From Marsupella aquatica (taxonomy: Eukaryota; Plantae; Marchantiophyta): a stretch of DNA of 64,000 bases. Positions 14,894 to 59,938 of this stretch are shown piece after piece (within the stretch, counting starts at the first letter, position 1; each line of letters begins with the position of its first letter). The translations under genes and the position numbers were made by a program. Below the pieces are notes generated by a model, which was not told the origin of the DNA, searched no databases, and saw only the letters and a program-made list of their open reading frames with translations. Location: NCBI GenBank assembly GCA_973895155.1, contig OZ316894.1, positions 8,146,234-8,210,233 on the forward strand, read 5' to 3'.

Positions 14894-15694
14894 TGCAGCA
14901 TCGCCTCGATGGGCTCGGGAGGGCCGGCGCTGTCTTGCCCACAGCCCACACCATCACCACTCGTCAGGCCTGGGCAGGGCAGGGCCGTTGCAGTGAGGGT
15001 GGGCAGCCCTGCAGCGGACGTGCTCACAGGGGGTCGGCTGGGGCGACTGCCAGGACCTGGGCAGACTGCTGGATCGCCGGGCAGGCTGTCGGGGTCCTTT
15101 ATACCCCGACTTGTGGTTTAAGTTTCCCTTCGTGAGGGCAAGTCACCCTCACATCGCCCTCCATGAGTTGCCTCGCCCGGCTTCCCTCGCCCGGCTTCCC
15201 TCTCGACTCTCCCCAGCCAACTGCTGACTCGCCCTCCCTTATTTAGCTTGCACACCACCTCCATTAGGGCGTCGCATCTATGCCGGGCCTGCGCCAGGGA
15301 AATTCCAGGTGCCAATACCCTGAAGTTTTGTACTGGCTTTTTTAGTGACCCGGTTGTCCGCTGTGTCCGCTATGCTTGACTCCGTTTAGGTTTGAGGCAA
15401 AGTTCAAACCCCATTTTGCCACACCCAGTTTTGAATCCCGGTGTTCATTATGAAGTAGTGATTAGAGGTACCCAGGTGACTGGAAGGATCCTGGAAAGGT
15501 ATAGGGTTGAGACCCCCTATTGCGCAATCTTGGACAGTGTGAGGCTTGGGGTCTCCTGGTCTCAGGTCCAGGCGTCTAAACTCCAGGTCTTGGAGTCTTG
15601 GGCCTAATTAAGTGTCTGAACTTGGGGTCTTTGTTAGGTGAGGTTGGGGGTATTGGGTCCACGCGCTTTGAAGTCGGAGAGTGTGAGGTCAGTC

Positions 15695-16052
15695 TGTCAT
15701 GCCGAGGGACAGTGCCTCTTATGCACATCGGCATGTCCCTCGCCTGCCCGCTAGGTATGTAGTTAGGGCTAGTGTACTACCTGAGTTAGCGACATGTTCT
15801 TGTAGCAAGTCTGGGCTGTTCTTGAAGCAAATGTGCTTGTTAGTGTGACGCCAGGACTTTGCTTGCTTAGGGCATGTCTTTCTTTGTGGGTTTTTCAGTT
15901 CTTCTTGAATCGCTGTTGACAGAGCTCAGACAGTGCTCGTCGGTTCCATACACGGGATTCACACAATGATTCGTTAGATGCTCCCGGCCGATCTTGGCAT
16001 CCTGCCGGTTTTTGATTCGATTTCAGTATAATTGTTTCTCTTACGCCTTTTA
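15695..16052 (+). repeat. Split repeat A1 (358 bp)
   Basis: Matches 24961-25318 with about 6 substitutions counted by eye. Confidence 0.95.
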
Positions 16053-16065
16053 TTCAAGAAGAACT
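16052..16065 (+). promoter_or_regulatory. Putative self-priming primer-binding site
   Basis: ATTCAAGAAGAACT at the end of A1 is the exact reverse complement of AGTTCTTCTTGAAT at 15897-15910. There is no TGG tRNA-type PBS here. Confidence 0.75.
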
Positions 16066-16197
16066 CCCGAGTTGGCAGTGAGGGGAAGAAGCTTGCTCGT
16101 GACGATTTCGATAATTTCTGGTGAAGCCATTGCAATTTCTTCGACGAACATCGAAGCGACGAGTTGAAAGTTATGGGTTTATGTTGTTATGTGTATA

Positions 16198-17221
16198 CTT
16201 AAGTGTATACACATATCAATGCTCCCGAGGAGGTCCAGAGTTCATTTTCTGGTTGCATCCGCGACCCCTTTGCTCCTTCTTACTGTTACTGCCGCTTGCT
16301 GCCGCTTGTTGCCTCGACTGTTTTTGGGGCCATTTTCGCATTCCCGGCCACAGCTGCCGGCGAGTTTTGCCTCGGCCGCAGCGAGACGCCTGCATAGGGC
16401 CGTGTGCCCTCGTTTCGACACGCTTCCACCCCGGCCTCCTCTTTACGTTTTCGCCTTTGGGGGCCCCGTTTTCTTCTCTTTCTCTCGACCTCCTTCCGCT
16501 TTGGTGTGCAGGCTGTACATAGGGCATCGTGCCCTTGCCTCGCCCATTTCTAAGCAGCCAGACTGCCAGAGGAAGGGGAAGGAGCACCAGGAGAGGGCAC
16601 GAGGCCCTAGGCAGCATTAAAGAAGGGGGAGGGGGAGCGAAGGCAGGAGCGCAGGGAGAGGGCACGAGGCCCTATGCTGCATTAAAAGGAGGAGAGGGAG
16701 TACATTCGACTCCCTCCTCTTGGGACTCACACTTCTGCCAGGCACAAGGCCCCATTCAGCATTAACGAGGGGGAGGAGTTGAAGCGAGACTGCGAGAGGA
16801 GAGGGCACGAGGCCCTATGAAGCATTAAAGGGGGAGGGGAGTTAAGTCGACTCCCTTCTCGGGAGTGCTCCTGCCAGGGCACGAGCCCAAATTACATTGC
16901 ACGAGAGGAGGGGGGGAGTTCGCAGCCCTCTATGGGGGCCCGATGCTTTTCTTTTTGCCCTTTTCGCCATCTCTTTACTTCGCCCTTGCCACGCTGCGTC
17001 TTGCCTTTTCCTCCTTACGCCTTTTGTGCTCCGCAGTATGTACATAGGGCATCGTGCCCTCCCGTTTCTTTCCCTGGCCGGCCATAGTGACTCCTCGACT
17101 TTTCCATAGCCGTCCGACTAGCGCTGCATAGGGCCGTGTGCTACGAGTGTGTATACACACTCGACTGGTCCGGCTGCAGTTTCCGGGTCCACAATGGGGC
17201 CCGAATGTGTATACACTTAAG
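16198..17221. repeat. Segment bounded by 17-bp inverted repeats, with a dispersed ATAGGGC..GTGCCCT motif in both orientations (structured leader or nested MITE)
   Basis: cttaagtgtatacacat (16198-16214) and atgtgtatacacttaag (17205-17221). Motif copies near 16392, 16515, 17040, 17126 (forward) and 16594, 16659, 16802, 16875 (reverse). Confidence 0.7.
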
Positions 17222-17372
17222 AGGGGCCCGGTTCACATATTTGACTACCGTTGCATAGGGCCCATATTTTCCCATATTTTCCCAATTTCTTTGCTGCCGC
17301 CACATGTCATCTACATAAGGTTGAGGGCCCGGCATACACATCAGACCGTCGATCCGGCAAGGACACCACAGC

Positions 17373-19349
17373 ATGTCAGCAGAGGAGCCAGGAGGTAGCA
17401 GCACATCGCCACCAACACCCAGGTACCATTTACAGAGTGATCCACGACCATTGGTGCCAATTTCATTGGAGCCTCGGCAATTTCGATGACGTCAGCAGAC
17501 AGCAGCAGTAGCACCCACACCACGCAATCCTTCTGCTACATTTGGCGGTCACTTCACCACTACTCAAAAGCCTGCTATCACTTCATTGCCATTTACCCCT
17601 TCTGCATCAGTGGTTGTTCCAGCTTCACCGACATATAGCATGGATGCTAGCCACTCATCTGGCCGCATTGAGCGCTTCAGCGGGCGGCCAGGCACTGTCT
17701 CTTTACGTGAGTTCAAATCCACTTTCTACACTGTCATTTACGAATTGGAGTTGAAGTATGGCAGCAATTTCACAAATGCTTTTGCATTTAAGCAGCTAGC
17801 CACGTATGTGCACCATGAGACGTTGGATGTGTATGAGCAACACTCTCAACGGCTGCTTGCTGTCACACAGTTGCCTAACCCTACCTATGCCAGTGCAATT
17901 ACGGCAGCCTCACAATTGGCCTTACAGAATGCCATTGCAGCCCATGCTGCTGCTCCTGCCACTTCCCCTCCTACTCCAGTTCCCACCACTGCGCCAGTTA
18001 CTCCCACTGTCTTGGCACAGGCTACATCAGGCATTTCTCCCACCATTGATTCCCTTGCCTTTGCTGATCCAGTGGCTGAGTTTTTCCAGGTTCTTGAATT
18101 GGAATTCCCAATCAAGAGTGCTGATAAAATCATGCAGTTAGCCACCTTTGTGAGGCAGCACGATGAAACATTGAAGATGATGTATCGCCGGCTTCTCAAG
18201 CTGAAGGAGGACACCCAGAGCATCACTGACCTGGAAGCTGCTCATCGCTATCTTTGCACATTGGAGGGGACACCAGCTCTCCATTCGCAAGTGTTGCAGC
18301 AAGTATTCTCAGAGTTTGGAGACAGCTACACCTTGCTCAATGTCTATGACACTGCTGAGAAACTTGAGTTGGCCCATGCACATTATGAGGCCAGTATTGT
18401 GCGTCCACCGCGATCCAGGTACCAGGCTGCTGCCCCTACACTGGCCACTCCTTCCCGTATGCCATAGTATGGTTCCAAGACCAAGCCAGCACATGCTGCT
18501 TTCATGTTGCCATCTTGCAACTACTGTGGTAACCCTAATCACAAGGCTAATGAATGTGATATTGTTGCTGAGGACCTGTCTTGTGATTTTTGCGGGAAAG
18601 TGGGCCACTTGGAGGCAGTTTGTTTTGCCAAATTCCCCGAGAGGAAGCAACTACGACAGCCGGCCACTCATCCTGCTCCTGTTTCCACTCCCCCACCAGC
18701 TAGGAGGGCTCCTACTGCATCAGTTGCTCCTCCTTCTAGTGGCAAAGCATCCAGTGCTAACAAATTGCCCAAGCAGCAACAGAAGCAACCAGCTCAAAAG
18801 GAGGCTCACAACGCATAGGCAACTCAACTCCAGTCTCTGACTCATGAGGTTGAGTCATTACGTGCCCAGCTTGCAAAAATCAAAGGCAAGTCCACTGCCT
18901 CTACTGGTCCTTCTCAACCGGCTGGTCATGTGCAACCCATCCCTGGCCCAGGCACCACTGACAGTTTAGCACCCATACCCCGCTCTTTCTATGGCATGCC
19001 ATTTGATGCTCATATGGGTGAGTGTGTGTTGTCCTCTGCTACATAGCCTGGCCTTACAGTAGAATTTTCAGATTCATTCTGCCCTTCCTATTTTGCTTAC
19101 CAGCAGGCCAGTGCTGCCTCCCGTATTGCTCCCATACGCCGCATTGTACAGGCTGATGGTCTTGCTGCTGGTCCTATGACTAGAGCCAGGGGAGCTCGGG
19201 CTGTCCTGCCCCAATCTTTTCAGCCACTCACACTTGCTGAAGAGCGCACCTTGTTGGCGAGGGGGGAGGGAGCTGCAGCTACATCCATTCCACCACCAGG
19301 TGCTGCTGACATTTCACGTACAAGGAGTTGTTCCTCCTGCGCTGCTTGA
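17373..19349 (+). pseudogene. Retrotransposon gag with two CCHC zinc knuckles, interrupted by nonsense codons
   Basis: One frame from ATG 17373 joins ORFs 17586 and 18504. Knuckles CNYCGNPNHKANEC and CDFCGKVGHLEAVC. In-frame stops at 17487, 18465, 18816 and 19044. Confidence 0.85.
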
Positions 19350-22300
19350 GCATTTCACCTCCGGTATGGCACAAAGGATTCTTACAACTGCACTTTTCAG
19401 TTGCCATGATTTACAGCTGGATGCTAGAGCTGTCATCAGAGGGCTAGAGGGTTCACTGCATTCTTCATCAGCCCCTGTGACACCGGTTTTGGAGGTCCAA
19501 TCTCATGTACATAGTGGACCTTCTTCTTCTCCATTACATGTTTCCACTGGTTTGGCTGCCCCAATACCGATTGCTGCTGATTGTGTGACCAGAGCTACAC
19601 TTGATTCTGGTCATGCTGCTCCATCTTTCCTGGCTATGTTGTTGAGTGGAAAGACCGTGGATACTAACTCCCTTCACAAGGTACCTCATCATTTGCCGAG
19701 AGTGGTGCCTAGTGATAGGACTTCAGTTTCCACCACCATTGCCATTGTTGACAACAGGAATTCAATGGTCAAGTTGGAGGGTCACACTCCTCAGGTGGTC
19801 ATGCTAGACACAGGTGCTCAACCAGTGATATTGGGCATTCAGTTTGCCAAGAAGATGGGATTGTTGACTGATCATTTACAGCAATCCAGGTGGCACATTC
19901 GGACTGCTAGTGGCACTGTGGAGGATGTGCTGGGTGAGAGTTCTACTTTACTCACTCTCACTTTTAATGGAGGTACAGATCAGGAATTGCATTTCCCAGT
20001 CAGATGTTTGGTTACCAATGCCACTACGTATGATGTGCTCATTGGCCAGGAGGCTTTGTTCCCACCAGGTTTTACCATTGACAATTGGCATACTACAGAG
20101 TTGATTGGCATACGGATGGCTCACACTTGGGCTACATTCCACTTGATTTGCATGGTGCCCATACACCTATGGCTCACCACTGTGTGTTGAAAGCAGTGCA
20201 CACAGCTACCTATGTCAACCACCCATTGCAGGATTGGATTGAGGAGGATGATGATGAGGTGGCTACTGCACATGCTGCTGTACGTATAGTAGCACTTTCC
20301 AGCAACGTGGATCATCAACCAGAGGTGGTACAACGGCTCCAAGCAGCCCATGGACCTTTGGTGGCTGCATTGCGCAAATTTGAGGATCTAGGGCAGCACA
20401 ATGGCCAACCAATAGCCCCAATCTTGAGCGCACCAGTTACATGGACTCCTCCTTCAGATGGCCTTACATTGCTTGAGCTTTTTGGTGGCATTTCTACAGG
20501 CCTGGAAGCTCTCCTACAGTCTGGCATGGTGGTGAAGCAGTACATCTATGTGGATATTGATCCAGGTGCAAGGCAAGTGTCTGAATCCCGTCTACTGGAA
20601 TTTTCAGAGCGATTTCCCTAGCAGTTTCCACACAGTGCATGGAAGTCTGCATTTTCTTTCTTTCCTCCAGATATCCAGCTTATCCAGCACCGGCACTTAA
20701 CCCTTCTTGGCTCCCTTGATTTGATCATAGCTGGTTGGGAATGCCAAGGGTTTTCAGCTGCTGGTCACGGTGCTGGACTGCATGATTCTCGTTCTGGCCT
20801 TTTCACAGCATTGGTTCAGATTCTCACCTGGGCTCAATCCCTTCATCTTGATGTTGGTTATATCATTGAGAATACTCCATCTCAGTTTGACCAGCATCCA
20901 CAGGTCAAAGAGGATTTCAGTGTGGTCCAGCACTACTTGGGACCACCCCTTCTCATTGATGTAGTGCACTGTGGTTCTTATGCACATCGTCTTCGTAACT
21001 TTTGGACTAACCTTGCACCACCTTCCTTGCTGGAGATGGCTCTTCACCACACATCCAGGGACACTAACCTTACAGTGGACCAGATTTTGGATCCTGACAG
21101 TTCTTGCCAACCAGTTACACGGCAAGAGCCAGCACCTTGGTATCCAGCCAATACCATTGGACAGCCCCGTGCTGCTTGGCCTACATTTGTGTCCTTTCCA
21201 GGTGCACATGCTTTTCAGGGTGATGGTTCTGGCCTGGTTTATCGACATTCTACCGGTACATGGGATGAACCTAGTCCTGAGGAGAGAGAACGGGCTATGG
21301 GCTTCCAACCCGGTACTACAGGTCACACCAAAATCATCTGGCTGGCCAGGAATGCTTTACTTGGCAGGGTAATGGATCTTAATGCTCTCACTTGGCTTCT
21401 GGTCACTTGCATCCTTTTTCAGATGTACATTCATCCAGCATCTGGAGTTCCAGCTCTACCACTCCATGGTGCTGCTACATGGCATCCAGACCAAGTGCAC
21501 TTACCTCTATTCAACACTCACCGCTTCAGTCCAAGTGTTGGGGGGGAGGAGGTCCCTTGTAATGTGGCTGACATTATTTCTGAGTTTCATGCTGTGGATC
21601 AGACCAGAGCAACAGATACAGTAGGCCTTGGAGAGGCCTCATCACCTTATCAGCAGCATGCTAGCAGCTTGGGTGGAGAGGCTAGCACTTCTGGCTCTTC
21701 AAGCACAAGTACATCAGGTCCTATTCCTAGTGTTGCCAACTACACATTCATCATGGGCAACCACCTGAGTAAAAGACAGAAGGACCAGCTGCTGAATTTG
21801 CTCCTCAAGCATGAGAACGTGTTTGCTTTCTCTATGAAGGACTTGGGTAAGTGCAAGACTATGCAGTTCTCCATTGAGTTGGCTGATGAAACACCTATCT
21901 TCAGGCGAAGACACCGTTTGAGTAAGCATGAGTGGCAGCTAGTGGATGAGAGGTGCCAAGAGCTCTATGAAGCTGGTCTTATTCAGCCATCTACATCAGA
22001 TTTTGCGGCAGCTACAGTGATGCCAGCAAAGAAGGATTCCAGTGGATTGTGGACAGAGAAGCGCATGTGTGGGGACTACAGGCCATTGAACCTGGTCACA
22101 CCCCAGGACAGGTACCCCATGCCACGGCCAGAGGAGCTATGTGACAGCATTGGAGACTCAGACATCTTCACTCTTGTGGATCTAAGGCAAGGCTTTAACC
22201 AGATTTTGTTGCTTGCAAAGGACCGCAAGAAAACAGCTTTCCATGGCAGTAACCAACTATGGGAGTGGTTGGTGATGCCATTTGGCTTGAAGAATGCGCC

Positions 22301-24743
22301 CATATTCTTTCAAAGAGTCATGGACCAGGTTCTTCAAGGTGCTGAGTTTCTGAAATGCTACATTGATGATGTGTTGGTCCACATCAAAGGATTTGACCAG
22401 CATCTACTTGACCTTGAGGAGCTATTCATGAGGCTTAAGAAGGTGAACCTAAAGATACACCCCAAGAAGTGTGAATTTGCTGTTAGATCAGTAGTATACC
22501 TTGGGCACCGCATTCTTCCAAATGGAACCATGGCTCACTGGGCCAAGGTGGTATCCATCTTGGAAATGCCCACTCCTACCGATGTTCACACTTTGAGGAG
22601 TTTTATTGGGTTGTGCAATTACTACCGGATCTACATCAAAGATTTCAGCACCATTGCACACCCATTGTATGCTTTGTTGAAAAAGAATGTGACTTGGACA
22701 TGGAGTACAGATGCTGAGGCAGCATTTGCCACTTTGAAGGAGAAGCTCTCAGAATACCCGATGCTGAGAAGACCTGATTTCAGCAAGGTCTTTGTGCTAC
22801 ACACAGATTGGAGTGCCCTTGGGATTGGTGCCATTATGGGCCAGCATGATGAGGAAGGTAAAGAGTACGTCATTGCCTATGCATCCAGGAGCAACAATCA
22901 GGCAGAGAGTCATTATTCTTCGTATGAGGGTGAATGCCTTGCTGTTGTGTGGGCTGTCATACATTACAGGCCCTACCTCTATGGGACCAGGTTTGTCCTC
23001 TACACCGACCACCAGCCCTTGAAGTGGTTGATGACCAATGACAAGCTTACTGACAAGCTTGCTCGTTGGGCGCTCATACTCCAGGAGTATGACTTTGAGG
23101 TAATTCATAGGCCTGGTGTGACACATCAGAATGCTGACACTATGTCCCGTAGCCCTTTGATTACCTCTGATGATTCCTCAGATGCACGGCAGGATTTTGA
23201 CCAGGTTTCCATCCTGCCTACATTTCATCTCGCATTTCATGCATCTACCTATCTTGCTTTGCTGCCATGCTATGTTGTTGACCAACTTGTGGTGGACATA
23301 TGGGAGGACAGCGACACTCTGAGATTTCTGCAGCATGGGGAGTACCCCACACATGTTACTACTGCCCAGAGAGACCGAATTCAGCAAAGGTCCAAGCGCT
23401 ACTTGTGGAAGGGAGATCATCTCGTGCGCTGCTTGCCAGACAGGGAAGTGATGGTTCCACCCATTCATGAGAGGGTTGGCCTTATTCGTAAGGTACATTC
23501 TGAGCTTGGTCATTTTGGCGTTAAGAGGACTTACAGCCTCTTGGTCCCTCATTATCATTGGAGAGGCATGCATGGCCAGGTTCGAGATGTTATTGCCCGA
23601 TGTGAGCAGTGTGATAGGGTAAGGACTTCTTTCACGTCTCGGCAACCCACACTTCACCCACTCCCTATTCAGGTCATGTTTTATCGTTGGTCATGTGATT
23701 TGGCTGGAGAATTACCCCTCACATCTCGGGGTAATCTCTACATCATGATCATGATAGAGCATTTCTCCAAGTGGATAGAACTTGTGGCATTGCCGGATAA
23801 GACCTCCCGTAGCACCAGCCAAGCATTCCTACAACAAGTTCTCAGCTGCTTTGGAGCTTGTGCAGAATGTCTCACTGACCAGGGTTCAGAGTTTAGAGGA
23901 GAGTTCCAGGAGCTACTTGATCAGGCCCTCATTGATCATCGCCGGACATCACGAGATCACCCACAGGCAGATGGCTTGGCAGAGCGCATGGTTCAGACAT
24001 GCAAGAAGGGCCTTCGGAAGATCTGCCTCACCAAAAACAAGGAGGATTGGGACCTGGCCTTACCCTACATTGCCATGGGGTATAGGATGTCCAGACATGC
24101 ATCACTATCTAACTTTTCTCCCTACTTCTTGTTGTTTGGTCGTCACCTAGTTCCACCTTCTGCTATTGCTGCTCACATGCTTCAGGTGGTGGACTTGGAT
24201 TCAGCTGTGACTTGGTTTGATGTGATCTCTGAGAGGGCTGCCCTATTCAGGAGGGTTATGCCCATGGCCATGGAGAATTTGGCCATTGCACAGCACAGGG
24301 ATACACTGCGTTATGCACACACACGAGGGGGCACTTTTCAGCCCAAGGTCAGGAAGTTTGATGTGGGAGATTTTGTGTACTTGCAGCGGCAAGCTAACGA
24401 CACCCTGGACACCTCTACCAGTCGCACTATTCTCAGGGTTAAAGCTATTCGACCGTCTGGAGTGCTAGAGTTACAAGGGGCAAATGGGCGCACAATTGCT
24501 GACAATGCCAAGAATTGCGCCCCTTGTCATCTGCCTAACCTGGATCCCACCATTGTGACTTCTACTTGGATTCCACCTGTGGACTATCCTTGCAAAGTGT
24601 GTTTGCGAATTGATGATGCTGACCAGATGCTGCTATGTGATAATTGCAATGGAGGGTACCATCTTTTCTGCCTTCGGCCTGAACTTACCCAGGTGCCAGA
24701 AGGGTTATGGTTTTGCCCTTCTTGTGCTCCACGTGCTACCTGA
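19234..24743 (+). pseudogene. Retrotransposon pol: protease - C5 DNA methyltransferase - RT - RNase H - integrase - PHD
   Basis: PR MLDTGAQ (~19800); frameshift ~20088; stop 20619; RT RMCGDYRPLN, PFGLKNAP, YIDD; RH HTDWS, YEGECLAV, TDHQPL; IN H2C2 plus WSCD, TDQGSEF, GLAERM; terminal C4HC3 PHD. Confidence 0.93.
20460..21405 (+). other. DNMT3-like cytosine-5 methyltransferase domain within Pol
   Basis: Motif I LLELFGGISTG, II YVDID, IV DLIIAGWECQGFS, VI YIIENT, VIII AHRLRNFWTNL, IX ERERAMGF, X RNALLGR, in canonical order. Confidence 0.9.
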
Positions 24744-24775
24744 ATTTTCTTCAGCCCTCCTTTTGGCTGTGGTCT

Positions 24776-24783
24776 GGGGGGGA
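24776..24783 (+). promoter_or_regulatory. Polypurine tract
   Basis: GGGGGGGA abutting the start of repeat B1, about 30 bp after the pol stop codon. Confidence 0.65.
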
Positions 24784-24958
24784 TACAGAGGTTTACACCT
24801 CCACTACGTACATACCACTTCATTTGCTTTTTCTTGGCACTTGTGAATGTGATTGGACTTTTGCTATGCATGTTGGTTGCTAGCAGCTTGCACTTATGCC
24901 TTGTCGGTGACTTGTATGTTTTCGATACACTATGGCTACGATACTATATGTCACGACA
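24783..24958 (+). repeat. Split repeat B1 (176 bp)
   Basis: Matches 25320-25495 with about 4 substitutions; ends ...tcacgaCA. Confidence 0.95.
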
Positions 24959-24960
24959 GC

Positions 24961-25318
24961 TGTCATGCCGAGGGACAGTGCCTCTTATGCACATCGGCAT
25001 GTCCCTCGCCTGCCCGCTAGGTATGTAGTTAGGACTAGTGTACTACCTGAGTTAGCGACATGTTCTTGTAGCAAGTCTGGGCCGTTCTTGAAGCAAATGT
25101 GCTTGTTAGTGTGACGCCAGGACTTTGCTTGCTTAGGGCATGTCTTTCTTTGTGGGTTTTTCAGTTCTTCTTGAATCGCTGTTGACAGAGCTCAGACAGT
25201 GCTCGTCGGTTCCATACACGGGATTCACACAGTGATTCGTTAGATGCTCCCGGCCGATCTTGGCATCCTGCCGGTTTTCAATTCGATTTCAGTACAATTG
25301 TTTCTCTTACGCCTTTTA
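24961..25318 (+). repeat. Split repeat A2 (358 bp)
   Basis: Copy of 15695-16052, separated from B1 by the dinucleotide GC. Confidence 0.95.
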
Positions 25319-25319
25319 A

Positions 25320-25495
25320 ATACAGAGGTTTACACCTCCACTACGTACATACCACTTCATTTGCTTTTTCTTGGCACTTGTGAATGTGATTGGACTTTTT
25401 CTATGCATGTTGGTTGTTAGCAGCTTGCACATATGCCTTGCCGGTGACTTGTATGTTTTCGATACACTATGGCTACGATACTATATGTCACGACA
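25320..25495 (+). repeat. Split repeat B2 (176 bp)
   Basis: Copy of 24783-24958; forms the right terminus and is followed by TSD AGTC. Confidence 0.95.
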
Positions 25496-26432
25496 AGTCC
25501 TATTTGGTCGTAACTCAACCCCTTCCATTGGTTCTAACTCCCCGCCAAGCCCTCGGCCTTGCTATTATATCCGACATTATCTCTTGCCAACCGGTTTTGC
25601 ACTCAAACATGCATCAATGGACTGGGGGCAATATTGGGATCAAAGTTGGTCCGGGGGTGTCAGGTCCCCAGATGCATATATGAGGAGACCAATCTACTCT
25701 CAAACATCAAATTTGAAAAGCTATACAAACCACACCCCCAACCACACCACCAACCCAAGGGGGCATGGTGTCTGAGAGTAAGGCGCCCGGAGAGAAAGGA
25801 GCCAAGTAAACTTGGATATGGTTATCAAAAGGGTTCATGCAAGGGGTAGGAAAATTGCGCCGCTGAAAGTGGGTTGAGCCATACCGTTGCCCCAAGGGGT
25901 CTCAGCATTGGGGCGGCCAAAGCCAAGTGAACTATTGTAGCGACTTAGTTTAAGCAAAGCCTAAAATAACCAAAATTGAGGTTACCAATGGGGTTCAGGG
26001 ATACAGTCAATGTGTTTTACTTCACAGTCACAATCACTAGTAGAAATACCCCCTATTTTTTACCAAACCACTATTGACTACTGTGACAAGGTTATGGAAG
26101 TTTAGGGTGTTATCACTACATATGTCTTAAATATCACTTCCACAAAGTTTCCACTCATTTGTTGCGACTCCTTTGCGATGTTGACTTTACCTACTCTTTT
26201 CAATCACTCATTCTTCAAGGTGCAAGGGACATTGTTCATGGTTCAAGGTTGTCCATGCACCTTTGAAGTTGGATGGGGGATACCACTTAATTACAACATC
26301 CCATCATAAGGAAAATGGCAGGTCCACTATCTAAGCTGATTGTCTTGGTTTAGGGTTCTTATGTGAGTGAGTGCTACTCACCAATTGCCAAACATTCAAG
26401 CTTTTTATGTGAGAAAGCTTCAAATAGTAGAG

Positions 26433-26566
26433 GTACCCCCTTACATGAGCCCCTTACATGTCACTGGCTGAGTACCTTAGTACTCTCCACCGTTGTGCAG
26501 TACCCCCTTACATGAGCCCCTTACATGTCACTGGCTGAGAACCTTAGTACTCTCCACCCTTGTGCG
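26433..26566. repeat. 67-bp tandem duplication inside the CACTA left arm
   Basis: gtacccccttacatgagccccttacatgtcactggctgag.accttagtactctccacc.ttgtgc occurs twice. Confidence 0.85.
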
Positions 26567-27511
26567 CGGGAGCAAATGTAGGGTCTTCGTCCGCAAAGAG
26601 GGTTTACAAAGGGGAGGGGAGGTGGAGCGAATGAGGCGACTCATTGAGAGGGGCGATCGATAGTCGATCAATCAAGGAGGGAACGAAGGTTTATGGAGAA
26701 ACAATGGGATTCTTAGTGTGCAGTGAGTCGGGCTCTCTGTGATTTCAGGGAGGAGGAAGGGTTTGACACCACACTTGAAGCGACCTGACCACATTCAATC
26801 GGGTGCTGGGTGCGTTTGCGAGTGCTCCCTGAAGGCATTGCGGGGGCATTGCGGGAAATTATAGGGTCGGACGCCAAGTTCGTGGTGCGGGGGTCGGTCT
26901 TCCTCCATTAGCTTTGTAAGTCTTTACCTCTTTGCCTTGCATAGCATTGGGAGATGAGAGGAGAGGAAGTGCTTCTTGCTCTTGCGGTCGAAGACTCTCT
27001 GTGATTGAAGGGAGGAGGAAGGGTTTAGGGCCACACTTGAAGCGCAACGTGACCACATTCACCCAGGTGCTAAGTGCGTCCATCTTCCGCCATTTGCTTG
27101 TTGGGTTGTTCTTCGGTCAAGAGGAGAACAAGCTAGAACAAAAACACGCTGCGACATTGGAGCGGGCGACATTGGAAGTGCCGGGTTTAGGGTGTCAACT
27201 TGTTTTCAAGACCGCTGATCTCTGGTGTGGTGTTGGGTGCGGCTGGTGTTCAAGCAAAGGTGAGAGGTCCCGTGCGACGCACTGTGGTGCTTCATTGTGC
27301 TCTGTTTGTACTCTGTTTGTTCATCTTAACTCTGGAAAATTAATGACAGCAAAAACTATGGTTCATATATAGAAGGTTGTCCCTATTCGAGACCTCTCTT
27401 GCTGAATTCTCACCTCACTCTCTCTCGCCCTCTCTCTCGGTCTCGCTCTTCCATCGTGTCTTGCTCTTCCATTGTGTCCACTCTCTGTTGCAAATTTCTC
27501 TCTCTCGCGAT

Positions 27512-28488
27512 CCTCAAGTACGTGTCATCATCTCTCCCTCTCTTATGCATGCCCATCACTATAGCAATCTCATGTCGGGGTCAGCGTCGAACTTGGATTT
27601 CACTATGGAAATGTAGATGGGATCACAGTATATTGTTGGCACTTTCATTCTGCTTCGGCTTGAATTGCTCTAATCTTATACACTAGTATTCTAGTGTGCA
27701 GAAGTGTTGTGCAGAACTAAGGTGGGGTGCGGGGGGTTTTTCTTTGCCTTTGCTGAGCTGTGATTTCAACTCAACGGTCCTGTCCTTAGTCGCTTAGTGC
27801 TTATTTGTGTCTTGCAACAACTTTTCAGACCTGCGCGCCTGCAATGCTTGTACTTTCAGAATTGCAGACTTTAGAGTATACTCTTGTACTGTCAATGACT
27901 AAATTAGAAGTTATTACGCGCGCCTACATGCTTCACTTGTGTCTTTGGAGGCTTTCGGATTAGAGGTTGCACAAAGCATGGATGTCATAGCCCTAAACTT
28001 CAAATTTTCCTGCATGCAATTCTACCTCTACATTCATGTTTCGGCAACAGGAAGAACGCAAAGGGAGCAGGTCACTCTTCCATTGACTACTTTGCCACTG
28101 TATGTATTCAATGTACAGGACATTAGTCAAATGTGATACTCTATAATGTACTCCTCCACGAACAACTAATGAGCCACAGAACTGATGAGCCACACTCTGT
28201 CTGTGGCACTTGCAGATCATTTTTCCACCCGTTCGAGAGCTTTCTCTGTTGCCAAGCTAGGCACAAAGAAATCATTCCAGGGTTTTGTCAACTCCTGAGG
28301 TCTGTAATCACTCAGAGCCCTCTACATTGTCATTGCTTTGTCTTCACTGGTGGTCTCAGGGTCGAGCGTTTGTGCTGCTTATCCTCAAGTATGTACAGAA
28401 ATCTCTCCCTCTCTTATGCATGCCCATCACTATAGCAATCTCAGGTCGGGGCCAGGGTCAAGCCAGGATTTCACTATGGAAGTGTAGA
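27512..28488. repeat. Dispersed direct repeat of about 105 bp in the CACTA left arm (27512-27617 and 28382-28488)
   Basis: Shared tcctcaagta..atctctccctctcttatgcatgcccatcactatagcaatctca..ggatttcactatggaa.tgtaga. Confidence 0.75.
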
Positions 28489-28897
28489 CTAGATTTGGGT
28501 TATTTGATTGGATTTTATGTATGGGGTGTCGATTGTATTCTACTGGCCTTCTTGCTGTGCTGAGCAATGTCCTGTTGTGGACTTTTGAATTCTTCTACTG
28601 GTTCCCCTTATTTTTGTGGCCCCCAAAATTTATAAAAATTAATGTGTGAAAATGCTAGCCCAACAATTGCCCACCTTTAATGGCAGAAATCGTTCAGTAA
28701 TTGCCTGTGTACAATCTCAGAGTCCTAAACTTAAAATTTCCTCCATGCACACAACCCGTCTTGAATTTAGAACTTGAAATTACAGTTTCTCAAATCTTTG
28801 GTATTAATTCATAGTTTTAGTTTCTCATTCTTTGCATGCTTCACTACGTCACTGACTCTAGCCATATATTGTGTTGTTTTCTATCGGGGTAGAAGTC

Positions 28898-29620
28898 ATG
28901 GCTCGTCCAAAACGGTCAGCACACAGAGGCGGATCACAGGTGAGGCACGATTCCATGAGTAGACATCATCATTGGTCCAATGCACAAATTCATCAAAAAG
29001 CCGCTCATGTCTGTGCCATTTGTGACGATGGAGGTGACCTGGTCATGTGTGATGGCCCCTGCCTAAGACAATTCCATGTCAATTCCTGGTCCACTTATGC
29101 ACCACAAAATGCATGCCCTGGGGTTGGGCTCCGGGGGGACCATCGGGGTGCTTGGACTTGCTTTGATTGTGCCACTAATATCAGCAAGTGTGCTCAATGT
29201 GGCACAAACGGCACTGTTGAGGGGGATCAACCAGAGCTGCGGAAATGTCCTGACAGGTTTTGTGTTCGTTTTTTTTGTTTGACATGCCTGCCCCATGATA
29301 ACTCCCTTTGCCCACTACATATTTGTCCTGCTTGTGGGGAGCCTGATGATGACTACTGGATAGACATGGTCCATTGTCCCAGATGTCCCATAGCCTGGCA
29401 CCATGAGTGTTTACTAGCCCTTCAGGCAGAAGGGTATGCATGTGACCGCCAAATTTATTCCCACTCTGCACACGGGGTTGATAGGTGGTTTTTGTATTGC
29501 CACCTCCATACGATTGACCCTCATTTGCAGACCCCTGCGAGAGACCACTTGACTTGGCTATTGCTGGATGATACCTCCAGCGCCAGCAACAAAACAAGTG
29601 GATCAGCACCAACAGGCTGA
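28898..29620 (+). CDS. EDM2-like (NSD-type) tandem atypical PHD-finger protein, CACTA cargo, 240 aa
   Basis: VCAICDDGGDLVMCDGPCLRQFH, CPLHICPAC, CPRCPIAWHHECL and C-terminal LYCHLHTIDPHLQTPARDH, matching the PHD region of plant EDM2 as recalled. Confidence 0.85.
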   Translation: MARPKRSAHRGGSQVRHDSMSRHHHWSNAQIHQKAAHVCAICDDGGDLVMCDGPCLRQFHVNSWSTYAPQNACPGVGLRGDHRGAWTCFDCATNISKCAQCGTNGTVEGDQPELRKCPDRFCVRFFCLTCLPHDNSLCPLHICPACGEPDDDYWIDMVHCPRCPIAWHHECLLALQAEGYACDRQIYSHSAHGVDRWFLYCHLHTIDPHLQTPARDHLTWLLLDDTSSASNKTSGSAPTG

Positions 29621-30523
29621 GCTAAATGAATCCAACATTGCACATCTCACATTTTGGACTTTTTAATGAAGTGGGCACCTCACTGCGCTGTCAACCATAG
29701 CTCAGACACACCCCGCTACAGTGAGCTATCGATCGACTTTGTGACTGCATAGTAAATTTGGATCTTGCTTTTTCAGTTCAGCCATACATGGTTCTGTCCT
29801 TATACTTTCGTACACGATGACACCTCCAAAACTAACTAAGTTAACTTATTTTTTGAAGACTGATTAAGTTAATTGCAATTTCAAAGTTAGGGCCTGCACA
29901 AGTATGTCTGTGTTTTTTCCACTTTGAGTGAATCATGTGTATGGCAAGAGACCATAACTGTGAAAGACTAAAGATTCCAAGCAGACTATTGCCTGGAGTA
30001 AAACAACATGCATGCATTGGAGTATGAAAATACATATATAGCTCAAATTATGTATTTGTTTTTGCTCTTAACAAAGGTCATCTTAAGTCGTGTGCCTGAC
30101 CCATACATTTGTACAATTACAGATGTGACTGGAAATTGGGCAGTTGAATGATATCATTCTCAGTCCCCACCACTGTCACGTAAGATACAGGTATTCAAAT
30201 GTGAATTCAGGCTATATGCAGACAAGATAATATAAAGGGCCACATGTATGCTATGTGTATACTGAAGTAGGCTGTCGCTCTACTTTCATCAATGTATTTA
30301 CATGAACACATGGTGAAAATAATTTGACTGAAGAGTATATAGTTTGTCCTATAACTCCGTGCTGGGATTTACTGCATGTATTGACTTTCGATCTTGTCAT
30401 GTGTGCCACAATCAGGGAGCTAGAGTGCACTTTGTGTCATCAGAGAGCATTGGGCTGAAGCATTGAGGGACAGGCAACGCGGGCACTGGTATTTCTCTAT
30501 TGGCTTTTATTACAGGAGGCATC

Positions 30524-31450
30524 ATGCCTTCCAAACGGAAGCGTGAACTTGTCCCCCTTCCAACTTCCCAGTGTGCTCCCATCTTCCAAGGGGTCAGAGT
30601 CTTTTTTGTCCCAGGTATTCAGAGTGCAAGATTGGATATCCTTAGGAGAAAACTCATTGAGTGTCACGGTACAGAGACACAATCTCAACTACAGGACACT
30701 GAAGTCACCCATATTATTGCAGAAACATGGGAACATTGTCTGAGAATGGCATCTTGGTCGGTTTTCTATGACAAAGTCTTCTTGAGGCATGTCAAAATAC
30801 TTTCAGCAGAATGGATGTCTGACTCCCTTAGAAAAGGGAGTGTCCAAGATCCTGATGATTACAATTTGTTTGAGAGCAAGTACAATAGCGTCCAAATGAT
30901 GAAAGACAATCAAGATTGGCACAAGGCTCGTAGAATTGCAGGGAGAGGTGGGAGTAGGGTTCCGTCTATTGACCAGATCACAAAAGTATACAACAACATT
31001 ATCCCATATGAGACAGAACCCATCCCAGACCGTACCATGTTCAGAGGTGTGAGGGCTGTTATACTTGACAAGTCTATCGAGCCATATAGGGTCTGTCGTT
31101 TCAAGAGGGAGATCAGTAGAAGAGGTGGTACAGTGATTGAGAAGCTCACTAATGAGACCACCCATCTCATTGCTCATTCATATTCTAAGGCATGCCGAGA
31201 GTATGGAAAGTCCACAGTACGATGGCTCATCACACATGGGCTGCGTGTGGTCTGCCCTGAATGGGTCAGGCAGTCACTTTCAACAAATATGCGATTAGAT
31301 GAGCATAAATATGATTTATATGAAATATGGCCAGCAAAGCCATTCATTCCCTATGACGACCCAGAATATGTTACTTCTGAGTTCCAGACCACGGATGAAG
31401 AGTTTTCTGATAGTGCGTATGATTCTGTTAGCCCTAATGATTATGAATAA
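30524..31450 (+). CDS. Tandem BRCT-domain protein (DNA polymerase lambda-type BRCT), CACTA cargo, 308 aa
   Basis: NLS-like MPSKRKR. Repeat 1: IFQGVRVFF..VTHIIA..EWMSDSLRKG..DDYNL. Repeat 2: MFRGVRAVI..GGTV..TTHLIA..EWVRQSL..KYDL. Acidic tail. Confidence 0.85.
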   Translation: MPSKRKRELVPLPTSQCAPIFQGVRVFFVPGIQSARLDILRRKLIECHGTETQSQLQDTEVTHIIAETWEHCLRMASWSVFYDKVFLRHVKILSAEWMSDSLRKGSVQDPDDYNLFESKYNSVQMMKDNQDWHKARRIAGRGGSRVPSIDQITKVYNNIIPYETEPIPDRTMFRGVRAVILDKSIEPYRVCRFKREISRRGGTVIEKLTNETTHLIAHSYSKACREYGKSTVRWLITHGLRVVCPEWVRQSLSTNMRLDEHKYDLYEIWPAKPFIPYDDPEYVTSEFQTTDEEFSDSAYDSVSPNDYE

Positions 31451-31858
31451 GGTCTCAACTGTCTGTATGCTAGACGGTTACATTTTTGAAATAAACTTTT
31501 GTGTGTTATTTTTTGTCTACAAGACATTACTCCTTTTCATCCTCCAAATGTCTTGGTTTTGCATGTGGAGATGTATGGCAGTGTATGATGTACGTTGTAC
31601 CATTGACTGGTCAACGACCAAGCACTTCACTGATTATAGCAAGTCTGTTATGATGTTGCTGCCTGCAGTGAGCAGATGATACGTGAGCAGGTCGGGCGCC
31701 AGCATAGAGCGGACTTGATAGTGAGTGTGTTTAGCGTCTATGATATTTCCTTCATGAAACTTGCATGTGTCCCCTCCATGTACTTAGAATATGCAATTGT
31801 ATAAGCCTGTCTAGTGCAAAGGGTACATAGCCAAGGGGTGCCTACGACAGCTGAAGGT

Positions 31859-34800
31859 ATGGATCAGGCAAATGAGGATGGACAGTTGGGGCAAAGGAAT
31901 CAGAGACATACCAATGAAGTGCGACTCCCTTTGCATCACCCACTGAGGATTACACGTCATGACTCCAAGTTGTGGAATAGAGAGGTGCTTAGAGCAAGTC
32001 GGGGCAGAAATGCCCGGATGAGATGCCCCTGCATGCAATGTCGAGGATACCACTCGATGACCCTGAACCAAGTGCATTCTCATCTTCAAAGGCATGGAAG
32101 ACATCCAATCCGCAGGGTGTGGAATGTGCCAGAGGAAGAGGATTCATCGGATGATGAATGGAGAGCAGATTTTGAAAATGTGAATACAGCAAGACGCTCT
32201 GCATTCTTTCATAACGTCACTGGTCATGCAGGCAACAATGCCGAAGATGAGTATGTTCCACAGGGAGGTCCCGAGACTTCTAATGAGGACGGGGCAGATG
32301 TTCCTAGGATGGTTTCCGACATTTTTCAAGACCTGGATGCACTTTATGAAGATGCAGAGGCACAGGGGGACGAAGAACCAGACATGCATGGTGCAGATCC
32401 ATCGGACCAAGAAGAGTTTGACATTGGAGAAGGAGCTGGAGATGATGGTCAATTCTTGGGAACTGGGGCCTACTTGGAGGAAGCTATGTCCCCATTGTAT
32501 GGTGGTGCAAATTGCTCCAAACTAGGGTTCATAGTGATGTTCCTCAATATATGTGGATGTCACCGTGTGCCCAACATATGTGTAATAGAGTTGTTGATGT
32601 TCCTACAGAGGACAGTACTACCCGCTGGAAACATTGCTCCTAAGAACATGTATGAGGCAAAGAAGGTGATCATGAGCAAACTTGGTTTGAATTATGTGTC
32701 CATCCATGCATGCCCAGATAGCCATGTACTTTTCAGAAAAGAATATGCTGATTGCCTATCCTGCCCTATCTGCGGAAAGCACAGATATAAGAACGTGGGG
32801 AAGTCAACTCAACCTGCTAAGGTCCTACGGCATTTCCCTCTCATTCCAAGATTGCAGCGCCTCTATAGGTGTCCATCCATTTCTAAGATGATGACTTGGA
32901 CCTCTGATCAGAAGAGTACAGATGGTTTGCAACGTCACGTTGGAGATTCCAACCACTGGAAGTACATAGATGAGAAGTGGCCAGACTTTGCAGCAGAGAG
33001 CAGAAATGTGAGGTTTGGTCTAAGCCTTGACGGTGCTAATCCTTTTGGAGACAAGAACAACGTGTATTCTTGCTGGCCAGTGACTTTGATAAATTAGAAT
33101 CTCCCGCCTTGGATATCCACCAAGCGTTTTTTTGTGATCTTGTGTCTTATGATTCCCGGCCCAAACTCTGCTATAAGTGCAAACATAGATGTTTGGTTGG
33201 CCCCTGCGGTGGAGGAATGGGTTACTCTATGGACACATGGAGTTATGACAGTTGATGCACTTTGTGGACCTGGTAGACCGAGGACATTCAACCTACGTGC
33301 AATGTGTGTTAATTCAATAGCAGACTACCCTGGACATAGCATGATATCTGGGCAGGTAGGGAAGGGATATCTGGGTTGCACACGATGTGGCCCAGATGTT
33401 ACATCTGAACGGTCCGTTTCCTTGGGCAGTATCAAATTCCAGGGCCACAGGCGATATCTTCCTGCCGACCACCCTTTCAAGCACAGGCAATCCCACATAG
33501 CCCACTTCAACAACCAGAGGGAGCTTCGAGAGTCTCCTGTGTTGGTTAGTAGAGACCAACTTCTGCAGTGGGGACTGAACAAGGTGTCTTATGATGAATA
33601 TGGTGCTTGTAGAGACGTGCCAGATGACCCAGCAAAGACTCATGGCATCAAAAGGCAGACAATGATGGACACATCATTGGAGTATTGGAAGGTAACATTT
33701 GCATATTCACTTGTACTCAGTGAACCTCTTCAGATCCTATGCACAACAGTTTTTAGTTCTTGTGTCTGAACCTAATTGTGGCAATCATGCGTACTTCATG
33801 GGTGCAGGATTTTGAGCCAAGCAAACATAACATTGATGTTATGCACATTGAGAAGAATGTATGCGAAAGTCTTTTGAAGTTTCTATCGGGGGACAACGAT
33901 ACTGCAGAAATACGAAAGGACCTTCAGGAGAAGGGCATTCGTCCTCAACTTTGGCTGCAAGAATCCCAGAATAGGCCGGGTGTGGTTTTCAAGTACCAAG
34001 CTCCATATGTTTGCACCCAGAATGAGTGGAACACAATTTTGTCTAGGCTGAGTTCGTTCAGAGTACCCTCTGGGTACGCTGGAGCCTTTGCAAAGCATAT
34101 AAGGAAGAAGAAGTTGGGAAGCATGAAAACTCATGACTTCCATGTTATGATGCAAGACATTCTACCAGTATGTCTGAGGGGATTGATGCAAAAACCAGTT
34201 CGCAATGTCATTTTGAGACTGTGTCAGATCTTTCGTCGTATTTGTGTGAAGGTGTGGGACCCTACAACATTTCCTCAGTTAAAGGCAGATACTGTGCGTG
34301 TGCTTTGTGACTTGGAGATTTATTTCCTGCCAGCATTTTTTGATGTCATGACTCATTTGATCATCCATGCGGTTGAAGATCTGGGCCACTACGGCCCAGT
34401 GAGTACAAGGTGGATGTATCCAATGGAACGGTACATGAAGTTGCTAAAAGGCCATGTACGTACTTATTACAGACCTGAAGCAAGCATGGCTCTCGGTTAC
34501 ATTCAAGAAGAGACCTTGGGGTTCCTTACAGAGTACATGGCTGGTGTAGACAGTGTTAGGAGCAGGGTGTGGGATGCTGAGGAAGAAGAGGGGGTGGCTG
34601 GAGAGGTTCTTCAAGGCGCTTTTACTTCCTTGCAATTGTCTGTAGAAGTTCGTGATGCAGCACACTTATATGTCTTACACAATACAGTCATGATGCAACC
34701 TTGGTGGCAGTGAGTACTCATGTTTCCGCACCCTCCTTGCATTCCTTCTTTATTCATATCCATTTTGGTAGGATATGTACATTGTATTGAGAAATTGTTC

Positions 34801-35574
34801 TCATTGTCATCATGCAGGGAATACAATGTGCAGAAGGCCGCCCAATTAGGGTTAAATCACCAGGCATTCCCTACTTTTCCTGAGTGGATCAGGACAACAA
34901 TTCGAGAGCATAGCAGGCAGAACCCAAACATGGATAGAGATGTTCTCCTCTTGTCTGTGCCTCCCAGACGTATTGTACAGCGGTATAAACGGATGAAAGC
35001 ATATGGGAATCAGTACCGTGTGCATGATGATGAGGACAAGCATTTAGTGACATATAATTTGGGGGTAATATCTGTGTTTGAGCATATAGATGCTCAGAGC
35101 AACAGGGGCTGGATGGAGATGGGATATGTTGGGGAGTTGGCAGACATCTGGGCACTGAATTATGGGAACACATCACAACAAATCTTCCTAATGAAAGGTT
35201 CATGGGTGAAGCCAGATTGGCATGGGCCAAGAGCGACCATGAAACGGGATATGGATGGCTTTCTAATGGTCAATTTTAACCAAAGACTGGCAGAATGGAT
35301 GGAGCCTTTTGTGTTCCCAAGTCAAGTGGAGCAAGTATTTTTTTTAGATGTGGAGGAGTCTCGTGGTTGGCGTGTAGTCTGCCATAGCTCACCTAGAGTT
35401 CGAAGGATGGAGGGTACTAAAATAGAGTTCAGTTTGGATGCACATGGGGCCTTTGAACAGCCGGCAGTAGACGTTGTACATCGGGGCCAGGGGACCAGGG
35501 AGTACATCCCCTTGACAGTGAGACAGACTTATGAGGGAGAGGTTGAAGCTGACATGGACGAAGATGATGAGTAG
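31859..35574 (+). pseudogene. CACTA TnpD/Tnp2-like transposase with one premature stop
   Basis: CPCMQC associated domain, IHACPDSH, RHFPLIPRLQRLY, GLSLDGANPFG, ADYPG, IDVMHIEKNVCESL, MKTHDFH, RWMYPMERYM, EPFVFPSQVEQVFF. Introns 33692-33807 and 34710-34817. In-frame TAG at 33095 (IN*NLPPW). Confidence 0.93.
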
Positions 35575-35872
35575 TTGGATTTGTTTTGTTGTGAGTAGGT
35601 GACTCTTTGAAGTGCAATGAGTAGCAAGTATGAGCAATAAATGGATGACTTGTTTGTGCAACCGCAGTAACTTGGTGAGTAGGATGCCAGACGAAAATGG
35701 CATGTGTGAGTATGAGAAGCAGGCTGTGAAACATCGAGCATGGGTTCGCCAATGTGCCGCAGCCCTGTTGGGTGATGTGCAAGAGGCTATTTCGGATATG
35801 TAAGGGACTGTGCATAGTATGAGCTGTATGTGTATCTCGTTGTGTGCGTCTGTTCATTGTGTAGCTTCTGTA

Positions 35873-38800: not shown

Positions 38801-38890
38801 CCAAACAAGGGAGATGATCCGCCACACATCCATCTTGTGGATGCTGTGGAATCATTTGTGATGTGGCCTGAGAAATTTGTAGAGTGTTAG
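35873..38890 (+). CDS. CACTA second gene (TnpA-like; Ptta/En/Spm-type and Tnp1-like domains), multi-exon, boundaries approximate
   Basis: Low-complexity N-terminus; R(H)RLHK..PPSVHVEQWTRL..KSAQMIAARNAVKNPTLTGRGG (36800-37375); coiled coil (37739); C-terminal FHGKKV..LPFP..VESFVMWP. Confidence 0.7.
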
Positions 38891-39389
38891 GTACCAAATA
38901 CAATTTGAGACTCAAAATGTGAAGGATTGTTTCAATATATGACCACAATTTGGAGTACATGATGTTGGGTAATACTCTTTTTTTTATGGATTGCTCATAT
39001 TTTGAGTTATTATCGTGCCATTGTTAGTTGGATTGGTGCTTTTGTGACATTAATGACTCAGTCTCGACTATGAATGACAGCATTGTCTACGGAAACTAGT
39101 GCGGTCAATTGAGTGTTATCAATCACTCACGGAAAACCCCATATGACTCGAACTAAGTCATTCTAAACACTTATGTTTGACTGATGTATGGTTCCAAATA
39201 CTTGACCCTCTAGTCACTAAAATGACTAATGACACTAGTCAATAATATGACTAAGTTAATCCAAGTCACCACTTTTATGACTACTAGTTGCAAGAACGAT
39301 GTCAGTGATTTTCAGTCATACATGACCGGTTTTAGTCATAGTTAGTCGTATTTTATGGTAAAAAATAGGGGGTATTTCTACTAGTGAAT

Positions 39390-55600: not shown

Positions 55601-56171
55601 GTTCCTTTTGATGACTCTTAAATGCATCGCTCATTTATATTGTGTGGTGTTATTCACGCAACCCTATGCACATGTAAGCGAGGTCATCATTGAGCTCAAA
55701 TACAATTTGTATGATCCCCTTAGAAAGACTGACCGACCGGAGGCTGAAGAATTGGAATTCTGGTAATTGACGGTTGTGGCACACGTGCTGCAGGCTAGAT
55801 ACTTGAAGGAAAACGGGAAACTCATTGATCTGCTTGATCCTTCCGTGCGAGACAGCGCTAATCATGAAGAAGTCATTCGAGTGATCAATCTGGCGTTTTT
55901 GTGTCTCGACTTCTACCCAGAAAAGCGGCCAACTATGTCTGAGGCAGTGACCATGCTTCAAGGAATAGTGGACGTTCCGCTCTGCAAACCAGAATCTGCA
56001 GCGTCTATCGAGGAGGAGGCAACTTTCCGACGAAGTAATAAGAGTTACAACTACATGAAATTGCCGAATTTTTCGGATCAAAGTGAAGCGAATGTCTCGG
56101 ACAGCTTCGTGATGAGTGCTACCTCAAGCAACGATAATAATCTAGAGTTGAGCAAGCTCTCTGCCAGATAG
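46627..56171 (+). CDS. Malectin-like domain / LRR receptor-like Ser/Thr kinase, paralogue 2 (about 16 exons)
   Basis: Signal peptide [19 protein letters not shown]; [31 protein letters not shown]; LRR exons; [25 protein letters not shown]; kinase [32 protein letters not shown]. Ends LELSKLSAR like paralogue 1 (LELTRLSAR), with matching intron positions. Confidence 0.92.
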
Positions 56172-59900: not shown

Positions 59901-59938
59901 TGGTTTTCGGTTTTTGGGATGGAGGGGGCTGTAATCAT
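56929..59938 (-). pseudogene. Copia pol remnant (IN-RT-RH) broken by frameshifts
   Basis: Four consecutive ORF fragments: 58244-59938, 57769-58239, 57480-57875, 56929-57567. Confidence 0.92.

Follow-up and report, generated by a model that had tools for sequence, protein, structure and literature searches.

Organization of the element in the window

The window, by which we mean the whole 64-kb stretch of DNA analysed, carries a 9.8-kb Ty3/gypsy element at positions 15695-25495, in which the repeats follow the order A1-internal-B1-GC-A2-B2 (Table 1). The element begins with TGTCATG and terminates with ACGACA, which gives it TG...CA ends, and the 4-bp target duplication AGTC was found on both flanks. 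A1 and A2 differed at 6 of 358 sites, and B1 and B2 at 4 of 176; the end of A1 was defined by alignment of 15695-16052 with A2, and position 16053 was placed in A by analogy with the sister family described below. As in Ty3/gypsy elements, a primer-binding site (PBS) follows the left repeat, a polypurine tract precedes the right repeat, and the TG...CA ends are accompanied by a short target duplication of fixed length (4 bp in the window copy and in 7/7 full-length relatives). The two whole TG...CA LTRs that should surround the internal region of such an element were not found in the window copy, and the repeats are instead split and permuted. Because the G7 tract stands at its start and the self-priming PBS at its end, B+GC+A taken together corresponds to one ordinary LTR, and the integrated ends sit 176 nt inside this reconstituted LTR. 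The self-priming complementarity extends over a perfect 14-nt match between 15897-15910 and 16052-16065. The long 5′ untranslated region of the element also contains four imperfect 57-nt repeats (16577-16841).

Table 1. Features of the retrotransposon in the window, with the basis of each assignment
Feature	Position	Strand	Basis
Left target-site duplication AGTC	15691..15694	+	Equals 25496-25499
Repeat A1, left terminus TGTCATG, 3′ part of reconstituted LTR	15695..16053	+	Comparison with A2
Predicted transcript 5′ end and self-primer, complementary to PBS	15897..15908	+	Transcription start inferred
Self-priming primer-binding site, adjoins A1	16054..16065	+	Complementarity to A1 segment
gag (zinc knuckle in ORF 18468-18818) and aspartic protease (ORF 19180-20190)	17490..20190	+	Pfam; several frames in window copy
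pol: C5 DNA methylase, RT, RNase H, HHCC zinc finger, DDE integrase D,D(34)E, PHD finger	20082..24743	+	Pfam
Polypurine tract (G7), adjoins B1	24776..24782	+	Sequence
Repeat B1, 5′ part of reconstituted LTR, 3′ end ACGACA	24783..24958	+	Comparison with B2
att-like site CACGACA-GC-TGTCATG; spacer 24959-24960 missing from integrated ends	24952..24967	.	Match to both termini
Repeat A2	24961..25318	+	Comparison with A1
A2|B2 joint, predicted end-joined junction of two cDNA ends	25318..25320	+	25319 is A, T in A1
Repeat B2, right terminus ACGACA	25320..25495	+	Comparison with B1
Right target-site duplication AGTC	25496..25499	+	Equals left one

Pfam analysis identified the protease-RT-RNase H-integrase order of Ty3/gypsy elements, with the HHCC zinc finger and the DDE integrase core that are expected of them, and Ty3 Gag-Pol was the best match among solved structures (E 5.5e-19). 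The window copy is broken: the C5 DNA methylase is interrupted by an in-frame stop in pol at 20619-20621, and gag and protease are spread over several frames. The integrase departs from the D,D(35)E spacing of Ty3/gypsy elements, with 34 residues separating the E from the second D (window 23874-23985), and it shows a one-residue gap against the Ty3 and foamy-virus integrases. D,D(34)E was present in 106 of 120 homologues (P0001-P0120; 10 unparsed, 4 other), and D,D(35)E in 7/7 parsed outgroup loci. This spacing is a possible marker of the clade and is perhaps linked to the unusual substrate of the integrase that is proposed below. Twenty-five ORFs of 90 aa or more overlap the element, and Pfam matched no tyrosine recombinase in the 23 of them that were scanned, the remaining two being ORFs that begin at or after 25320 and extend into the flank. 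Likewise, no Pfam match to a chromodomain was obtained in the element, which carries a PHD finger instead. Homologues with a named source include one from a liverwort (72% identity, covering 67% of the query) and others from green algae.

Plant genes are present elsewhere in the 64-kb window. An En-Spm/CACTA-like element of 13.4 kb occupies 26034-39387; its inverted ends match perfectly over 32 bp, and PHD-like (28862-29620) and twin BRCT (30467-31450) ORFs precede its Transposase_21 region. An old segmental duplication (~4000-11600 and 47400-56000, 71-89% identity) includes a malectin-like receptor-kinase fragment at 5750-6280, and a Ty1/copia remnant (rve, SH3, RVT_2) lies on the minus strand at 56900-60019.

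A candidate att site inside the LTR

The original prediction held that the 18-mer at 24951-24968 consists of the right terminus, two nucleotides and the left terminus of the element. Comparison of this 18-mer, which spans the junction of B1 and A2, with the ends confirmed this, as 24951-24958 equal 25488-25495 and 24961-24968 equal 15695-15702. The 18-mer was found once in the window, and shuffled sequences gave 0.04 matches at three or fewer mismatches. The GC spacer is indeed absent at the integrated ends, where the AGTC duplications flank the termini with no GC between. The further claim that the site is templated inside the LTR was borne out by the sequence, the unit from the polypurine tract (24776-24782) to the PBS (16054-16065) being B+GC+A, and so was the claim that integration ends are uncoupled from priming ends: the ends defined by priming carry no TG or CA, and the insertions end at the halves of the internal site, with their 4-bp duplications, in the window copy and the 7/7 full-length relatives alike.

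We found 66 perfect 10-bp palindromes in the window, 11 of them within the element, and with a 4-bp terminal inverted repeat (TGTC/GACA) in place, the spacer would be self-complementary by chance in 1 case in 4. A 10-bp palindrome alone is therefore common, and the weight of the argument is carried by the position, which joins both termini, and by conservation across families. Since the 16-bp motif is self-complementary as a pattern, the single window site was scored on both strands, on the minus strand at position 24967; no second site matching the motif was identified in the 64-kb window.

Logan contigs of the element's own family were then inspected in runs X1, X3 and X5 (run X10 yielded none); these contigs report presence and not frequency. 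Unrelated flanks began right after 24958 in 15, 9 and 8 contigs, respectively, and stood right before 24961 in 12, 6 and 3 contigs. Variants of the site were transitions only, with G to A at 24959 at ~6% of depth in X1 and X3 and none in X5, and no indels were found in the internal site among the contigs of these three runs. Judged from sequence, the internal site is a real and deeply conserved feature, it very probably has an att role, and the integrase is likely to cut there.

The internal site in a sister family

An alignment of 33 proteins was used to fetch 80 metagenome loci, which were the best 80 of 384 confirmed matches and come from short-read assemblies. Seventy-nine of the 80 belonged to one sister family at 63-82% identity, and collapsing left 67 distinct loci: 24 with B-A-B at the right side, 25 with a single B (22 with B intact), 3 with B-A, 2 otherwise damaged and 13 without downstream repeats. 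L012, L041 and L063, in which B is cut or damaged, were excluded from the single-B count, and L030 and L031 were counted as one. B1 and B2 were mostly 80-96% identical across the 24 distinct B-A-B loci. Exact 4-bp duplications at TG...CA were found in 7/7 B-A-B copies with both ends, a G-rich run preceded B1 in nearly all of 51 sister-family rows, and a self-priming complement was present at 16 of 18 left ends. In L006, L023, L040, L042, L058, L065, L077 and L079, B1 and B2 of one element end in unequal numbers of 15-nt tandem units, with the larger number in either repeat, which looks like slippage. In some contigs A is joined to B within long records, and these may be solo A|B units.

Conservation of CA-NN-TG and of the palindrome among copies had been put forward as a check of the original prediction. 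The B1|A2 spacer measured 2 nt in 26/26 distinct copies, and only 3/26 of these old copies kept the exact palindrome. The spacer read GC in 8 copies, AC in 11, GT in 3 and AT in 4. Each of the 18 non-GC spacers differed by transitions, and all variants can be derived from CAGCTG by deamination at CHG sites, where the transition rate in the sister family had a mean of 0.25 and a maximum of 0.50. Free variation of spacer or palindrome, which had been named beforehand as the outcome that would overturn the prediction, was not what we observed. The conserved signal spans ~16 bp and includes a spacer fixed at 2 nt, and these results suggest that a perfect palindrome may not be essential. Because A at the first spacer position (15/26 copies) exceeds the mean CHG decay of 0.25, the AC spacer may once have been active; this A fills one sub-clade, and the signal of spacer labels on the tree was not significant (7 changes vs 8.4, p 0.23).

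About half of the copies ended at B1 without GC-A-B (22 vs 24 B-A-B), and these A-internal-B copies were scattered over the tree. They were not older than the B-A-B copies (median end branch 0.056 vs 0.086, p ~0.05), which does not speak for slow B-by-B recombination as their only source. Among single-B copies, the target duplication was exact in L034, matched at 3 of 4 positions in L052 and was not seen in L005. A left end was visible in 18 distinct relatives, 3 of these ends being damaged, and the mirror product A|B-GC-A-internal-B was present in none of them; L005 has GC before TG with no B upstream. Full type-I copies numbered seven.

The A2|B2 joint varies independently of descent

The original prediction did not address how B comes to follow A. 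Standard LTR reverse transcription would yield B-GC-A-internal-B-GC-A, a product in which there is no A|B joint. We therefore compared this joint in 25 sister copies, and found it to be blunt in 11, shortened by 2 nt in 7 and by 1 nt in 2, extended by 1 nt in 3 and by 3 nt in 1, and unclear in one (L055, which was left out); the extra T of L042 is also present at its B1 start and was perhaps not made at the junction. Of the 24 aligned rows, 15 had an indel at the joint within a 6-column window, while none had one at the spacer. A tree was built from pol alone with 48 rows, L056 being excluded for an insertion and a long branch; it is star-like, with 7 of 46 inner branches well supported. On this tree the joint classes required 11 changes, compared with 10.7 for shuffled labels, and grouping of the -2 copies as a clade was rejected (p-AU 2e-6). 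By contrast, 13 of 14 transversion columns followed the tree, as did 10 of 11 other indel windows, among which windows 38-41 lie side by side and are non-independent. Since its variants ignore the pol tree while nearly all the other indels and transversions follow it, the A2|B2 joint is not inherited, and is likely to be made anew at each insertion by end joining, in the way of the junctions of end-joined circles.

The joint classes can also be read as the product of reverse transcriptase (RT) jumping between cDNA ends with 2-nt microhomology and occasional added bases, which would give a longer-than-unit cDNA to be cut down by the integrase at two internal sites. Among imperfect joints the most frequent (-2, 7/25) uses the AT that is common to the A end and the B start, the +1 and +3 joints agree in part with the start of the PBS, and a jump on one strand could be directional, which would explain the missing mirror form. 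The commonest class overall is nevertheless the blunt one (11/25), and end-to-end jumping by the RT of this clade is an assumption taken from retroviral biochemistry. We give this explanation a small chance.

Distant families and Chlamydomonas entries share the site

The signal shared by the sites is CRYGACAGCTGTCRYG. The corresponding motif, CRYGACAG(C/T)TGTCRYG, is found again both in families whose proteins are 46-53% identical and among the Chlamydomonas library entries. In the distant loci with enough downstream DNA (L080-L084; four families found by protein homology only), GACAG(C/T)TGTCA was identified 56-108 nt after a G-run in 5/5, with a GC spacer in four and GT in one; L085, L086 and L087 had no usable downstream DNA. 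L083 and L084 have longer palindromes, of 20 and 16 bp, respectively, and B-GC-A-B was seen directly in L082. Self-priming complements of different sequence were present in L080, L081 and L084; none was found in L083, and L082 has no left end. Contigs of this eukaryotic retrotransposon clade (L081-L087) lie inside several prokaryotic genome bins, a placement that is likely to be binning contamination. A 12-mer match in bacterial-looking DNA (L104), which had neither tract nor element, was dismissed as chance, and no relatives were found among viral contigs.

A Chlamydomonas repeat library (supplement of PMC9940879, of which part was available) was searched with the exact 10-mer, which biases the search; among the matches listed, 9 of 11 lay 45-60 nt from a G-run or C-run. 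The matching entries, non-autonomous ones included, start with TGTCRY and end with RYGACA (Gypsy-14a, 14b, 18, 21, 22, N2a, N4a, N4b_cRei and Gypsy-1_cInc in the available part of PMC9940879). Gypsy-14a_cRei as given there is a composite, with its own internal site and the tract-B-GC-A block of Gypsy-14b. Gypsy-7a_cRei, from a family active in the laboratory, was considered as a clade member but not supported, having no match to the motif.

The breadth of this distribution bears on two further explanations. The permuted layout could be an accident, by which a solo unit inserted in tandem or nested beside an ordinary element, or a misassembly of repeats, and short-read assemblies do collapse such repeats (L081 is a self-overlapping contig). 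We see almost no chance of this, for the layout recurs in 24 distinct sister loci, in L082 and in curated Chlamydomonas entries, while a single duplication flanks the entire unit and the spacer is 2 nt and not a 4-bp duplication. Alternatively, the elements might replicate as PAT/Ngaro elements do, with an RNA running from A1 to the end of B2, both joints templated and B1-A2 serving only as the template for circle closing. The repeat layout is identical to that of PAT/Ngaro elements (PMC5890265, Fig. 4c legend). The A2|B2 joint is not inherited along the pol tree, though, the polypurine tract at B1 and the self-priming PBS at A1 are found from the Chlamydomonas entries to the window element, no tyrosine recombinase was matched in the ORFs scanned, and the insertions make 4-bp duplications, all of which makes such replication very improbable.

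A proposed route through end-joined cDNA

Our favoured reading, to which we give somewhat better than even chances, is that the 18-mer is a fused right and left end kept within the LTR, probably cut by the DDE integrase so that a cDNA with joined ends, which is probably a circle, is inserted in place of the usual linear one. In the integrated form, A1-internal-B1-GC-A2-B2, B-GC-A spans the polypurine tract to the self-priming PBS. Standard LTR reverse transcription would convert it to a cDNA B-GC-A-internal-B-GC-A, whose ends carry no TG or CA. The A end and the B start would next be joined anew, blunt or with small losses or gains, to give a 2-LTR circle, a step that the junction statistics support. 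The integrase would then nick both strands of one CA-GC-TG 3′ of CA, the 2-nt spacer being lost as 5′ overhangs, and strand transfer would produce the 4-bp duplication. Opening of the left site would yield exactly A-internal-B-GC-A|B, which could replicate again. Foamy-virus integrase acts in this way in vitro, nicking each strand of its palindromic CA-NN-TG circle junction (PMC1180852), and the absence of a tyrosine recombinase from all ORFs scanned was also counted in favour of a circle opened by the integrase.

A symmetric circle would be expected to open at either site, and the 0/18 count of mirror products therefore argues against this model, as does the near-equal abundance of A-internal-B copies (22 vs 24). 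More speculatively, the left site might be chosen because the left LTR becomes double-stranded first, and cutting of both sites, or a 1-LTR circle, might give rise to dead-end A-internal-B copies.

The missing mirror form could also be explained if the integrase cuts the left internal site of linear cDNA and inserts both new ends, after which host repair joins the A end and the B start, as the left site is always nearer to a cDNA end (B measures 56-176 nt, A ~290-360 nt or more). The final sequence and the variable A2|B2 joint would be identical to those of the circle model, and an RT jump would likewise end in this sequence. Each insertion would require a double-strand break, however, and larger deletions at the joint might be expected, while all 25 joints fell within -2 to +3 nt, though badly damaged copies would have been classed otherwise. 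We regard joining after integration as unlikely.

For the clade as a whole, we see about an even chance that it is an ancient green-lineage group, from Chlamydomonas to land plants, marked by D,D(34)E, with an att site in the middle of the LTR, which would propagate only via end-joined cDNA and a 2-LTR circle opened by the integrase. If this is true, it would be an LTR retroelement with a circle as the obligatory precursor of integration. Retrovirologists have long disputed whether 2-LTR circles are true integration precursors, and in retroviruses such circles serve at most as a side route; this clade is apparently built around the circle route, with a conserved 16-bp site and a predicted integrase cut in the middle of a duplex. 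The internal site offers a direct biochemical test, and the Chlamydomonas families a possible genetic one, and an integrase that opens and inserts circles at a short defined site could serve as a tool. Since detection tools that look for two whole LTRs fail on this layout, repeat libraries of algae and plants probably list too few members of the clade or split them wrongly.

Comparison with known systems

The layout itself was already noted in 2018 for KnitGypsy-Dnmt3 of Klebsormidium nitens, an element with DIRS-like repeats and Gypsy domains (de Mendoza et al. 2018, PMC5890265). Like the window element, it has a C5 DNA methylase in pol and the order A-coding-B-A-B, as far as can be judged from its description, by which alone the two were compared. 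The part of that account available to us gives no junction sequence, target duplication, priming sites or mechanism. The Chlamydomonas entries are also similar, with a G-run, a B of 45-60 nt, GACA-GC-TGTC, A and B again, TGTCRY...RYGACA ends and a PHD finger; by eye, a self-priming complement could be read in Gypsy-18 and D,D(34)E in Gypsy-14a. They are filed plainly as LTR/Gypsy; some are left unsplit, and in others A|B is taken as the LTR. In the available part of PMC9940879 we saw no account of the site inside the LTR. In the literature searched, the 2018 remark was the only mention of the layout that we found, and no prior account of this clade describes its internal site, its self-priming or its end-joined joint; theses, book chapters and Repbase reports may hold one.

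Self-priming is shared with other retrotransposons. Tf1/Sushi elements and plant Tcn1 chromoviruses use a self-priming PBS complementary to the LTR and no tRNA (PMC6317226), and the window element has such complementarity too. Theirs are elements with two whole LTRs and a C-terminal chromodomain, whereas here a PHD finger and permuted LTRs were found. The 2-LTR junctions of foamy virus and HIV-1 have a palindromic CA-NN-TG that the integrase cuts on both strands, leaving 2-nt 5′ overhangs (PMC1180852; see also PMC1905944 and PMC4372172). Circles are a side route in these viruses, and the site does not exist until the cDNA ends have been ligated; in the clade described here, by contrast, the LTR itself holds the site as template, while the ligated joint lies elsewhere and is free of signal.

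A parallel in layout is provided by PAT/Ngaro elements, whose A1-ORFs-B1-A2-B2 repeats were recovered in the window element, and in both the B1-A2 joint reproduces the joined ends. PAT/Ngaro elements use a tyrosine recombinase and as a rule make no target duplication, whereas the present clade has a DDE integrase, 4-bp duplications, a polypurine tract and a PBS. In the IS3 family (IS911), IS30 and IS21, a DDE enzyme acts on right and left ends abutted with a spacer of 2-3 bp. These are bacterial DNA transposons in which the transposase builds the junction in each cycle, and the junction is not stored in the element as it is in the window element.
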